Below are positions 57,178 through 62,655 of a stretch of DNA of 64,000 bases, one piece after another. A program made the position numbers and the translations under genes. Origin of the DNA: an uncultured Chloroflexia bacterium. GTDB lineage: Bacteria > Chloroflexota > Chloroflexia > QHBQ01 > JADMIH01. The notes below the pieces were generated by a model. That model was not told where the DNA came from. It was given only the letters and a program-made list of their open reading frames with translations, and made no database searches. The DNA is taken from contig CAWCNY010000002.1 in assembly GCA_963797095.1 (NCBI GenBank), positions 576,001 to 640,000 of the forward strand. Reading direction: 5' to 3'. The stretch's first letter is position 1. Each line of letters starts with the position of its first letter.

Positions 57178-57300
57178 GTGACGAGTGACGAGTGACGAGT
57201 AACAACGCAATACGCAATACGCAATACGCAATACGCAATACGCAATACGCAATAGCCACTCTCCACTCTCCACTCTCCACTCTCCACTCTCCACTCTCCA
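57178..57300. repeat. Composite heptamer array (GTGACGA)3-GTAACAA-(CGCAATA)7-G-(CCACTCT)6
   Basis: Direct reading; fills almost the whole space between a stop codon and the next RBS. Confidence 0.95.
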
Positions 57301-57315
57301 GAAGGGACAACCATC

Positions 57316-58569
57316 ATGCATACACTATGGAATCAGCGCTTCGCGCAGCGCACTCAAAGGATGTCCGGCTCGATCATACGTGAGCTTCTCAAATTGACCG
57401 AACAGGATGGCATAATCTCGTTCGCGGGTGGACTTCCTGCCCCCGAAGTATTTCCGGTAGACGAGGTGGAAGCTGCCGTCACAAGGGTCTTGACAGACCA
57501 CGGACCCCAGGCTCTGCAATACAGCACTACCGAAGGCTACCATCCCCTGCGCGACCTGCTTGCTAGCCACACCGCCCGCTATGGCATCCACATCACCGCC
57601 GAAAACGTCCTCATTACATCAGGCTCGCAGCAGGCACTCGACCTCCTCGGCAAAGTCTTCATCAACCGAGGAGATCGAATATTGGTGGAGGCCCCCACCT
57701 ATCTAGGAGCCTTGCAGGCCTGGAACTCCTACGGAGCCGAGTATGTGCCTGTGCCTGCAGATGAGGATGGCATGAACACCGGCGGGCTTGAAGCGGCCTT
57801 GCGCGTCGGACCTAAGTTCATCTATGTCTTGCCCAACTTCCAGAACCCCACTGGTGTCACTCTAAGCCTGGAGCGCCGCCGCAAACTCGTTGCGCTGGCC
57901 GACCACTACGGCGTCCCCATCATCGAAGACGACCCCTATGGGCAGCTACGCTATGAAGGCAAGCACCTCCCTCCCGTCGCGGTTCTTGATGAACAGAGCT
58001 GGCATCGTGGCGAATACTCTTATTCCGGCAACGTGATCTATCTGAGTACCTTCTCAAAGACATTGGCCCCTGGCCTCCGGTTAGGTTGGGTGGTGGCCGC
58101 TCCTGAGGTGATCGCCAAAATGGCCCAGGCCAAGCAAGGTGCTGACCTTCACACATCCACCTTCACCCAGATGGTGGCCTATGAGGTCGCCAAGAACGGC
58201 TTCATCGACCATCATGTGCAACTGATCCGCAAGGTCTACAGCGAGCGCCGTGATATCATGCTTGAGGCCATGCAGGCCCACTTCCCCGAAGGCGTGCGTT
58301 GGACGCACCCGGATGGCGGCCTCTTCCTCTGGGTCACCCTTCCTGAATCGCTCGATGCCGCCGAATTACTCAAGAAAGCCATAAAGCAGAGGGTGGCTTT
58401 CGTGCCTGGCGCTCCTTTCTTCCCCTGTGGAGGTGGGCATAACACCATGCGCCTCAACTTCTCCAACGCCTCCCCCGACGCCATCCGGGCCGGGATCGCC
58501 AGGCTGGGAGATGTGCTGAAGGCAGAATTGGCAGCTCCCACAATGGAATATAGCCTGGCGATACCCTGA
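57316..58569 (+). CDS. PLP-dependent aminotransferase class I (LysN/ARO8-like)
   Basis: ISFAGGLP, LQYSTTEG, NFQNPTG, EDDPY, TFSKTLAPGLRLGW, MRLNFS. Confidence 0.92.
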   Translation: MHTLWNQRFAQRTQRMSGSIIRELLKLTEQDGIISFAGGLPAPEVFPVDEVEAAVTRVLTDHGPQALQYSTTEGYHPLRDLLASHTARYGIHITAENVLITSGSQQALDLLGKVFINRGDRILVEAPTYLGALQAWNSYGAEYVPVPADEDGMNTGGLEAALRVGPKFIYVLPNFQNPTGVTLSLERRRKLVALADHYGVPIIEDDPYGQLRYEGKHLPPVAVLDEQSWHRGEYSYSGNVIYLSTFSKTLAPGLRLGWVVAAPEVIAKMAQAKQGADLHTSTFTQMVAYEVAKNGFIDHHVQLIRKVYSERRDIMLEAMQAHFPEGVRWTHPDGGLFLWVTLPESLDAAELLKKAIKQRVAFVPGAPFFPCGGGHNTMRLNFSNASPDAIRAGIARLGDVLKAELAAPTMEYSLAIP

Positions 58570-61800: not shown

Positions 61801-62572
61801 CCTCCTCCAACTTGCCGACATGCTGGTGCGCAAGAGTGTATGGATCATCGGCGGCGACGGTTGGGCCTACGACATCGGTTTCGGCGGACTCGATCATGTG
61901 CTCTCCAGTGGCCGCAATGTCAAGGTGCTGGTGCTCGACACCGAGGTTTATTCCAACACCGGCGGCCAGATGTCCAAGTCCACGCCCAGGGGTGCGGTTG
62001 CCAAGTTCGCGGCAGCAGGCAAGCCTGCCTGCAAGAAGGACCTCGGCCTGATAGCCATGACCTACGGCAATATCTACGTGGCAAGCGTGGCGATGGGAGC
62101 CAAGGACGAGCACACCCTCAAGGCTTTCCTGGAAGCCGAAGCCTACGACGGCCCCGCCCTGATCATCGCTTACAGCCACTGCATAGCACACGGTATCGAC
62201 ATGACCAAAGGTATGCAGGACCAGAAAGCCGCAGTAGACAGCGGCCAGTGGCTCCTCTACCGCTACAACCCCGACATGGAAAGCCGAGGGCAGAACCCAC
62301 TCACCATCGACTCGCGCCCGCCAACCATGCCCCTTGACCTCTACATGAACATGGAGAACCGCTTCAAGATGCTCTACAAGAGCCACCCGGCTCACGCCCG
62401 CCAACTGCTAGCCCAGGCCGAAAGCGACGTGGCCCGCAGGCGCAAGTACTACGAATACCTGGCAAACAGGCAGGTCCAGCAACCGCCACCGCCACCCACA
62501 ACCAACGGCAAAGCCCCAACACCAACCGCCTACGCAACAGGCGCAACATCAAACGTGACGAGTGACGAGTAA
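58880..62572 (+). CDS. nifJ: Pyruvate:ferredoxin (flavodoxin) oxidoreductase, homodimeric type
   Basis: DGNEAVA, YPITPSS, EMQSEGGAAG, two ferredoxin motifs, FSGACSGCGETPY, GGDGWAYDIG, SNTGGQ.SK. Confidence 0.97.
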   Translation: MKRVLATLDGNEAVARVAYRLNEVIAIYPITPSSVMGEWADQWASEGIPNIWGTVPTVVEMQSEGGAAGAVHGALQTGSLATTFTASQGLMLMLPNMYKIAGELTPAVFHVAARSLAAQALSIFGDHSDVMAARPTGFGMLCSASVQEAHDFALIAQAASLKARVPFIHFFDGFRTSHEVAKIELLDESDLCAMIDDDLVMQHRARALSPDHPVIRGTAQNPDVYFQGRESSNQFYLDCPSIMQDAMDRFAQLTGRQYKLYEYYGAPDARRVIVVMGSGAEAAHETVDYLNAQGEHKDEGRVGVLKVRLYRPFDARRFVEALPPTVKAISIMDRTKEPGSMGEPLYMDCLGAIHESLSSSWNMSASGGLASYPVIVGGRYGLSSKEFTPAMIKAVFDNLNESQPKNHFTVGINDDVTHTSLPYDPNFITEPDNVFRGLFYGLGSDGTVGANKSSIKIIGEETPNYAQGYFVYDSKKSGAMTVSHLRFGPAPIHSTYLIQHPNFVACHQPVFLDRYDMLKDITPGGVFLLNTHYWPNEVWDHLPPLVQQQIVEKHLSFYVIDAHQVGRDSGMRQINTIMQACFFAISGVLPRDEALAAIEHSIRKTYGKKGDDIVKMNLQAVSNTLEHLHKVQVPATLRKSNGNSHAPGESRTLASAPTFVREVLGKIIIGEGDTLPVSAIPVDGTYPTGTSQYEKRNLANEIPVWDPDVCIQCGKCAMVCPHGVLRIKVYDEAELEGAPATFKHTGARDREWQGLQYTIQVSPEDCTSCGICVDICPAKNKSETRLKAINMQPQTPLREEESENWQFFLDLPEMDRLRIKENSIRQQQVQQPLFEFSGACSGCGETPYVKLLTQLFGDRLVVANATGCSSIYGGNLPTTPWAHNREGRGPAWSNSLFEDNAEFGLGFRVSLDKQRDFACELVKKLAPQVGEDLAASILEADQHDETGLQAQRERVAELKDRLTAFQSSSSDARRLLQLADMLVRKSVWIIGGDGWAYDIGFGGLDHVLSSGRNVKVLVLDTEVYSNTGGQMSKSTPRGAVAKFAAAGKPACKKDLGLIAMTYGNIYVASVAMGAKDEHTLKAFLEAEAYDGPALIIAYSHCIAHGIDMTKGMQDQKAAVDSGQWLLYRYNPDMESRGQNPLTIDSRPPTMPLDLYMNMENRFKMLYKSHPAHARQLLAQAESDVARRRKYYEYLANRQVQQPPPPPTTNGKAPTPTAYATGATSNVTSDE

Positions 62573-62655
62573 CGAGTAACGAGTAACGAGTGACGAGTAA
62601 GCAGTACGCAATACGCAGTACGCAATACGCAGTACGCAATACGCAGTACGTCACG
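62554..62655. repeat. Composite heptamer array (GT[G/A]ACGA)6 grading into alternating GTACGCA/ATACGCA
   Basis: 14 units in a single 7-nt register; contains the nifJ stop; bounded by inverted CGTGACG/CGTCACG. Confidence 0.95.

Follow-up and report, generated by a model that had tools for sequence, protein, structure and literature searches.

Heptanucleotide arrays with ordered units and G-rich-first polarity between protein-coding genes of an uncultured Chloroflexia bacterium

Tandem arrays of seven-nucleotide units (heptamers) lie in spacers between protein-coding genes of an uncultured Chloroflexia bacterium, and we studied them starting from a stretch of 64,000 nt (the window; G000:C2:576001-640000) of its genome, G000, which is 6.02 Mb long in 8 contigs with a GC content of 0.58. 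The arrays that drew attention are composites, in which one heptamer gives way to another, and they surround an aminotransferase gene and the PFOR gene downstream of it. We show here that such arrays have a characteristic layout and polarity, that their junctions recur, that their units are species-specific and that they are linked to genes of the four-helix-bundle family PF05635. Gene coordinates come from our own crude open reading frame (ORF) caller, whose stop positions are reliable and whose start positions are less so, gene names are Pfam matches, and arrays were called with Tandem Repeats Finder (TRF) unless stated otherwise. Unit A is GACGAGT (GTGACGA-type), D is CGCARTA, C is AACCAGG and B is CCGACTA. 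The locus is laid out as follows, in window positions:

56620..57174, plus strand: POR-family subunit gene (PF01558, E 1.3e-38), its TAA at 57172-57174 lying 3 nt before the first array
57177..57200, plus strand: block 1, GTGACGA-type (A), 3.4 copies, G-rich (TRF and sequence)
57205..57254, plus strand: block 2, CGCAATA (D), 7.1 copies, 100% matches (TRF), a loop-type unit that follows A genome-wide
57256..57300, plus strand: block 3, C-rich heptamer, 6.4 copies (TRF), ending 15 nt before the ATG at 57316
57316..58569, plus strand: aminotransferase class I/II gene (PF00155, E 8.9e-41), between two composites
58745..58783, plus strand: putative decayed G-rich 5' arm with AGTC-type remnants, judged from its likeness to full B'-C-B cassettes
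58784..58807, plus strand: AACCAGG (C, loop-type), 3.4 copies (TRF and sequence)
58811..58857, plus strand: CCGACTA (B, C-rich 3' arm), 6.7 copies (TRF), ending 22 nt before the PFOR start at 58880
58880..62572, plus strand: PFOR gene, 1230 aa (Pfam), its last codons and stop coming from the array
62554..62600, plus strand: GTGACGA/GTAACGA (A), 6 copies, overlapping the PFOR stop (TRF)
62596..62650, plus strand: CGCAGTA/CGCAATA (D) in strict alternation, period 14, 3.6 copies, 100% matches (TRF)
62649..62655, plus strand: CGTCACG, single-unit remnant of a 3' arm, the complement of CGTGACG at 62554-62560
62672..63676, plus strand: DHO_dh-family gene (Pfam), with an RBS-like AGGAG between array and ATG (RBS, ribosome-binding site)

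The composite at 57177-57300 is made of three abutting blocks (3.4, 7.1 and 6.4 copies). Three units of block 1 stop every reading frame because the unit contains TGA, and the 5-nt core of block 3 is complementary, by eye, to the core of block 1, which makes block 3 an imperfect 3' arm. The second composite (58784-58857) is an AACCAGG to CCGACTA junction (C2:634784-634857), and at the third the PFOR stop codon (TAA, 62570-62572) falls within the array itself (62554-62655), whose terminal CGTCACG (62649-62655) pairs with CGTGACG at 62554-62560 in the minimum-energy fold, giving a closing pair of 6-7 bp only. An initial annotation, made from the sequence alone, had given the arrays at 57178 and 62554 the same order, a GTGACGA-type unit and then a CGCARTA-type unit, and had seen two units alternate at 62604-62645; the block composition bears out both descriptions. 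Between the aminotransferase stop and the second composite lies a terminator-like hairpin (58590-58636; G-rich 5' arm, then a T run), and this composite may therefore belong to a 5' leader rather than to the interior of an operon.

Seven is the favoured period both in the window and in the genome, as the initial annotation had supposed. In the window it accounts for 22 of 52 TRF rows (period 14 for 5, period 21 for 1), and exact runs of at least 17 nt number 13 at period 7, 8 at period 6 and 0 at period 8, against an expectation for period 7 of 0.05 on average and 1 at most in 100 first-order Markov resamplings. Across the genome, period 7 gives 409 exact arrays of three or more copies, against 61, 7 and 68 at periods 6, 8 and 9, and 1326 of 4665 TRF rows have period 7; a further 217 and 95 rows have the higher-order periods 14 and 21, which, as in the alternating block at 62596-62650, are the expected output of ordinary multi-unit slippage. 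The 741 exact arrays of the genome use 124 canonical units, the top 8 of which make up 436 arrays, and a small vocabulary is shared, as had been claimed. Ten of the twelve loci first listed carry a TRF period-7 array within ~40 nt, whilst TRF made no call at the remaining two, where the letters read directly give a decayed in-register string of GCGAGTA then CGCARTA (29520) and an imperfect inverted repeat (54652). An assembly artefact can be discounted, because independent assemblies hold similar arrays. These are arrays of a known kind, STRR-like heptanucleotide arrays (STRR, short tandemly repeated repetitive sequences); the published units GGGAATC and GGGGA(C/T)T are not among the 45 commonest canonical units, so they are alike in kind and not in sequence.

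Unit order, inverted arms and polarity

The 1306 period-7 rows that TRF yielded for clustering group into 995 clusters, of which 759 are single arrays and 236 are multi-array. Oriented neighbour counts are headed by A to D (35) and C to B (32), followed by B' to C (18), B' to A (13) and D to A' (9); the order D to A is not among the 40 commonest unit pairs listed, and B' C B, seen 7 times, is the most frequent triple. Junctions are also constrained in phase, with 28 of 35 A to D junctions in two of the seven phases, 15 of 32 C to B junctions in one and 10 of 12 A' to B junctions in one, and the same non-repeat linkers are found again at unrelated loci. The fixed unit order and the register kept across units, both noted initially, are thus real, and they imply that whole junctions are copies of one another. 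Slippage alone is insufficient, as had been argued, because junctions of unlike units recur with identical linker and phase at unrelated loci. A linker motif has 145 of its 1384 matches near arrays, a count that is confounded since the motif also matches GACGAAG-type arrays. At one locus in another genome (L082, G012:C9:70000-70550) a 16-copy ACGCAAT array has an identical 10-nt direct repeat (ACGTTTCACC) on both sides.

These recurrences bear on one alternative, that the arrays are plain microsatellites, each having slipped in place, with a length of 7 nt favoured by polymerase contact and with neutral drift in dispensable spacers. The polymerase idea is that of Mrazek 2007, quoted in PMC4692102 (for this and the other papers cited, statements refer to the parts covered here), and the rows at periods 14 and 21 agree with it, as do copy numbers that vary between arms and species. 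However, local sequence is not the source of the shared vocabulary, and unrelated loci agree in order, linkers and phases.

The outer blocks of composites are often complementary, as was first pointed out: a reverse-complementary pair occurs in 63 of the 236 multi-array clusters, against 25.5 +/- 4.1 in 300 shuffles. Copy numbers of the two arms are weakly negatively correlated (rho -0.26, n=93), which rules out co-expansion of the arms by fold-back copying. Further arrays of the window include a nested inverted set, through whose right-hand arrays an ORF (36900-38096) runs:

36569..37916, no strand assigned: nested inverted arrays, outer CGAGTTG/AACTCGG and inner GGTAGTC/CTACCGG, enclosing ~1.1 kb (TRF)
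42789..46340, no strand assigned: further period-7 arrays of the shared vocabulary, at 42792, 44464, 44520, 46269, 46298 and 46322 (TRF)

The arrays follow a strict G-rich-first polarity that is linked to stop and start codons. Where the arms of an inverted pair are no more than 60 nt apart (84 pairs), G exceeds C in the 5' arm of 70 and C exceeds G in 5, with 9 ties, and neighbouring arrays of opposite GC skew are ordered (+,-) 131 times and (-,+) 18 times; since an inverted repeat reads alike on both strands, this polarity is independent of the direction of transcription. Solitary arrays that are G-rich in the sense strand lie a median of 8 nt past the stop codon, 96 lying nearer the stop and 20 nearer the start, and solitary sense-C-rich arrays lie in mid-spacer or near the start (61:76). 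Of the 227 arrays no further than 10 nt from a stop codon, 135 contain a sense stop triplet, versus 89 of 534 elsewhere, and units with a stop in the sense strand only relate to units with one in the antisense strand only as 81:1 where the array overlaps the stop, 38:4 at 0-3 nt from it and 14:89 at 41-80 nt. At the other end of the spacer, ATG or GTG occurs in 13 of 208 arrays that finish within 30 nt before a start, versus 115 of 553 others. In 59 paired co-directional cassettes the 5' arm begins a median of 3 nt after the stop and the 3' arm finishes a median of 19 nt before the start, and both distance limits are satisfied in 39. The proposal that arrays run from a stop codon to just before the next RBS therefore holds for paired cassettes and is weaker for arrays at large, whose median spacer coverage is 0.29. 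For plain microsatellites the polarity rule is a further difficulty.

Avoidance of Rho was considered as the cause of the polarity and is not supported: Rho is present, yet sense C-rich arrays are not depleted (ACCGACT 46:32, ACGAGTG 47:45). Perfect intergenic hairpins of G000 that are not made of heptamers show a weaker G-rich-first bias (406:234), and genic ones show none (312:309).

Other genomes and the RNA hairpin question

The sister species G004, of which 211 kb was sampled, has a stronger excess than G000 (103 rows at period 7 versus 10 at period 6), with different units (AACTGAC, AAATGAG, AAAACGT) and the same polarity (G-first 13:0, 4 ties). G022 has a moderate period-7 excess, and G020, from another family and with a GC content of 0.71, has none. 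In G029, again from another family, G-rich arms are followed by AATACGC and then by C-rich arms, and the arms are unlike those of G000. The exact A..D pattern was found in one other species genome of the collection, a Chloroflexaceae metagenome-assembled genome, at 8 loci of identical layout, whilst, of 400 other genomes in the phylum, 2 contain a triplet of the D unit.

Twelve syntenic spacers could be compared between G000 and G004: arrays are present in G004 only at 5, in both (with different units) at 2, in G000 only at 1 and in neither at 4, with empty sites measuring 1-69 nt and filled sites 135-184 nt. Such gain and loss at orthologous spacers is what plain microsatellites would produce. 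In the spacer between PFOR and DHO_dh the window alone has arrays among the orthologues compared, and G004 has a two-unit mini-hairpin there. The 19 metagenomic loci that hold relatives of the aminotransferase (61-73% identity) carry 1 period-7 array in total; no close strain is among them, and so they offer no empty and filled site pair at short distance. G000 itself has a second pair of PFOR and DHO_dh genes (G000:C1:275867-280570), with 79% DNA identity to the pair in the window and a spacer without a heptamer array.

These comparisons also bear on the suggestion, made initially, that the arrays are tuned RNA hairpins. On this account they would be selected RNA devices: hairpins between cistrons that can be tuned to fix how much of each operon product is made relative to the others, acting as stabilisers, as RNase III sites or as coupling stems. 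Their placement is in its favour: 608 of the 741 exact arrays are intergenic, in the 15.5% of the genome that the ORF caller leaves intergenic, and 473 of these 608 lie between co-directional genes (80 divergent, 55 convergent), whereas co-directional spacers make up 58% of intergenic bases. Cassettes reach from stop to RBS, the base of a stem would join the stop codon and the next RBS, and composites of three junction types lean towards the sense orientation (44 sense, 23 antisense). However, folding gives the sense strand no advantage: across 248 co-directional array loci the better fold is sense at 108 and antisense at 135 (P 0.16; P values here are overstated, because copies that share descent are not independent). 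Furthermore, a third of the composites are antisense, orthologous spacers do not conserve their arrays, the metagenomic aminotransferase loci hold the single array just mentioned, and the sense folds at 58784 and 62554, the two flagged loci that were folded, have z values near 0. A tuned mRNA hairpin is not supported at these two loci, and as a general account of the arrays we regard selected RNA devices as unlikely.

PF05635 genes inside heptamer arms

PF05635 is a four-helix-bundle family that bears the name "23S rRNA intervening-sequence protein". G000 has two such genes, both bracketed by inverted heptamer arrays:

G000:C7:59247-59808: PF05635 gene cassette with GCCGGTA/ACCGGCT arms (profile search)
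G000:C6:697639-698122: PF05635 gene cassette with GATTTTG/ATCCAAA arms (profile search)

All loci studied lie between protein-coding genes and not in a 23S rRNA helix. Of 30 relatives surveyed, 24 have the family, with up to 12 matches per genome. Reverse-complementary period-7 arrays bracket 23 of 29 PF05635 loci from relatives, and an array lies within 450 nt at 28 of the 29; by comparison, among the 1181 genes of 90-200 aa in G000 that served as the control, 4 are bracketed, and PF05635 genes lie inside such arms ~250 times more often than other small genes. Small four-helix-bundle genes, one of the families that the initial annotation had named for examination, are thus consistently bracketed by inverted heptamer arms. 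The polarity is the same as elsewhere, with a G-rich 5' arm at 18 bracketed loci, a tie at 4 and a C-rich one at 1, and the picture holds without the two G026 loci (21 of 27 bracketed; 16 G-rich, 4 ties, 1 C-rich). A neighbour's stop codon adjoins 21 of the 23 bracketed cassettes. Nearly every PF05635 cassette uses a unit of its own, and its arms contain heptamer repeats in variable number across species.

One orthologous junction, at which the left gene's stop falls in the first arm unit, carries four arm types in four species, with or without the PF05635 gene. In G000 and G017 the gene is present, the protein being 81% identical and the DNA 78% identical across the whole locus, and every copy of the unit, in either arm, is one base different between the two species. 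In G015 there is a gene-less hairpin, of a third unit and with a 14-nt loop, whilst in G014 a fourth arm type surrounds ~280 nt in which there is no PF05635 match (G014:C39, E <=1e-5). In the C7 cassette of G000 (L113 1935-1990) the right gene seems to start at a GTG overlapping the TGA of the cassette gene and to be translated through the open C-rich arm. Genes of other families are bracketed as well: a 189-aa HNH endonuclease gene (G000:C2:1273663-1274440) stands between inverted GACGAAA/TTCGTCC arrays, and glyoxalase, AlkZ-related, PNPOx and DinB_2 genes are likewise bracketed elsewhere in G000.

The bracketing of 23 of 29 PF05635 loci against 4 of 1181 controls is a further point that plain microsatellites leave unaccounted for. 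Together with the shared vocabulary, the fixed junctions and the polarity, it leaves that explanation already strained, and we consider it improbable as the whole account.

A dedicated writer of repeats, which the initial annotation had favoured as a templated repeat-writing mechanism, could take the form of telomerase-like addition of G-rich heptamers to 3' ends at a break, or of a PF05635/Avd-like protein acting with a reverse transcriptase. The polarity is indeed telomere-like, in that the G-rich strand on either side runs 5' to 3' towards the centre, and species with different units keep the same period. The PF05635 protein on C7 has a sub-threshold bAvd-like match (E 2.3e-5), and reverse-transcriptase domains are matched 22 times in the genome, in roughly a dozen genes of which some are near-identical copies. 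On the other hand, a single genome uses 124 canonical units, sister species have other vocabularies, the arm copy numbers correlate weakly and negatively, and the unit change between G000 and G017 resembles point mutation followed by homogenisation. The reverse-transcriptase matches lie on contigs C1, C2, C3 and C5, none of them on C6 or C7 with the four-helix-bundle genes, which speaks against a link between the two; the adjacency of reverse transcriptases to the arrays themselves was not tested. We therefore think a dedicated writer very unlikely.

A cassette reading and its known relatives

The reading we lean towards is that the arrays are STRR-like microsatellites that form the arms and loop blocks of small hairpin cassettes placed between a stop codon and the next RBS. 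Such a cassette runs from a G-rich arm (often with TGA or TAG, three units of which stop all frames) through an A/C-rich loop block, here CGCARTA or AACCAGG, to a C-rich arm that is poor in ATG, GTG and stop triplets. Full-length relatives carry the PF05635 gene in the loop, like the ORF-bearing intervening sequences (IVSs) of 23S rRNA, and the flagged loci of the window would be gene-less, partly decayed cassettes. Copy number would shift by replication slippage, including steps of two and three units, the units of both arms would be homogenised together, and composites would spread by copying, through transposition or ectopic conversion. The polarity may persist because only the G-first orientation ends an invaded frame at once, and keeps false starts off the next gene. 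Transcripts of intact arms would presumably fold into a long stem, a possible substrate for RNase III.

Several observations weigh against this cassette reading. Stop-free units show the same polarity (42:15 at 0-10 nt from the stop, 34:90 further on), so a filter acting through stops explains it in part at most, and stop triplets cannot be its only cause. In the sense strand, shuffled sequences fold as well as the arrays at 58784 and 62554 do (z -0.16 and +0.22). No PF05635 match lies in the window or at the flagged loci, and G000 has two only (profile search, E <=0.001), against ~1300 arrays of which most form single-array clusters (759 of 995), so that most arrays may owe nothing to cassettes. 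Arms track the protein weakly, mean protein identity at non-syntenic loci being 55.6% between like arms and 45.2% between unlike ones, and some protein pairs at 72% identity bear unlike arms. We found no target duplication and no defined element ends. Causality may also run in reverse, with the PF05635 gene homing into the loops of pre-existing hairpins.

A bolder extension of the cassette reading, and a rather doubtful one, is that bacterial heptamer repeats in general are the arms of a widespread selfish PF05635 cassette, in which the protein, a nucleic-acid binder of Avd-like type, would itself keep or write the 7-nt register of the arms, the period being the footprint of a protein and not a result of slippage. 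If the PF05635 link holds across phyla, heptamer repeats turn out to share a single puzzle with the "rRNA intervening-sequence protein" family; if it fails, the arrays are an ordinary fast-changing class of microsatellite in a new lineage. The lineage offers testable handles in a polarity tied to stop and start codons, in ordered arm-loop-arm cassettes that change their units but not their period or polarity, and in PF05635 genes within the arms. To our knowledge, bacterial heptamer repeats have been catalogued for decades, unexplained since 1990, without an origin or a function being assigned to them.

In the literature outside subscription journals we found no statement of the polarity as a rule, of an arm-loop-arm grammar or of a general link between PF05635 and heptamers; the layout, the polarity and the PF05635 link are new, on top of a known, STRR-like kind. 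The STRR sequences of heterocystous cyanobacteria, as in Calothrix PCC 7601, are dispersed tandem heptamers of few unit types. The arrays described here share the dispersed tandem heptamers and differ in phylum and in units, and the polarity rule and the cassette layout are, as far as we know, not part of the STRR description.

Bacterial interspersed mosaic elements (BIMEs), which combine their motifs in mosaic order, invite a further comparison and a further alternative, namely that the arrays are elements of the repetitive extragenic palindrome (REP)/BIME type moved by a REP-associated tyrosine transposase (RAYT, Y1). Like these, the arrays are extragenic, lie downstream of ORFs and have foldable inverted units, and the main units GGTAGTC and CACTCGTC contain the REP super-family tags GTAG and CGTC (Di Nocera et al. 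2013, PMC3733652). Placement downstream of ORFs thus fits, and the genome has four Y1_Tnp genes. However, none of the four is bracketed, three standing beside TnpB-size genes as in IS605 and one with a single adjacent array, so that we find no RAYT association here, and the units are tandem heptamers and not single palindromes; we hold this origin to be highly improbable.

A close published likeness in placement is to the G-rich heptamers of Xanthomonas (GGGAATC) and Nostoc PCC 7120, which are ~90% intergenic and mostly between co-oriented genes, lie nearer the upstream ORF (28 vs 160 nt), form 70 and 75 pairs in "convergent orientation", i.e. G-rich first, and stay at the same type of site in different species although their length varies (Rehm et al. 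2015, PMC4692102). Period 7, intergenic co-oriented placement near the upstream stop and G-rich-first pairs are common to both. Xanthomonas and Nostoc have one G-quadruplex (G4)-prone unit, whereas the present genome has 124 units, composites in fixed order that include loop blocks, and arms that bear stops; the PF05635 link goes unmentioned for those repeats in the parts of PMC4692102 covered. Within the same phylum, the (GATAGRA)n satellites of Chloroflexus aurantiacus, described as "probably transposed", are likewise species-specific, heptamer-derived and scattered over the genome, and the parts of that paper covered are silent on layout, polarity and any link to a gene (Subirana and Messeguer 2019, PMC6749651). 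The TAACTGA repeats of marine Beggiatoaceae, reported together with mixed heptamer sets in Microcystis and Bacteroidetes, resemble our arrays as intergenic direct heptamer repeats near start codons, with several heptamers in one spacer; they differ in having essentially one unit, with a single inverted set reported and a translational role proposed (MacGregor 2015, PMC4679880).

One S23p-bearing IVS of 23S rRNA has strain-variable heptamers at its 5' end, the first of which is the site of RNase III cleavage (Warrier et al. 2016, PMC4990558). This ORF-bearing IVS resembles our PF05635 cassettes in that a four-helix-bundle ORF lies within terminal inverted repeats that form a long stem, and in its heptamers. 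The IVS sits in rRNA helix 45, whereas the cassettes of this lineage lie between protein genes at stop codons, most of them without an ORF, and, unlike that IVS as described in the parts of PMC4990558 covered, have two arms that are both whole heptamer arrays.

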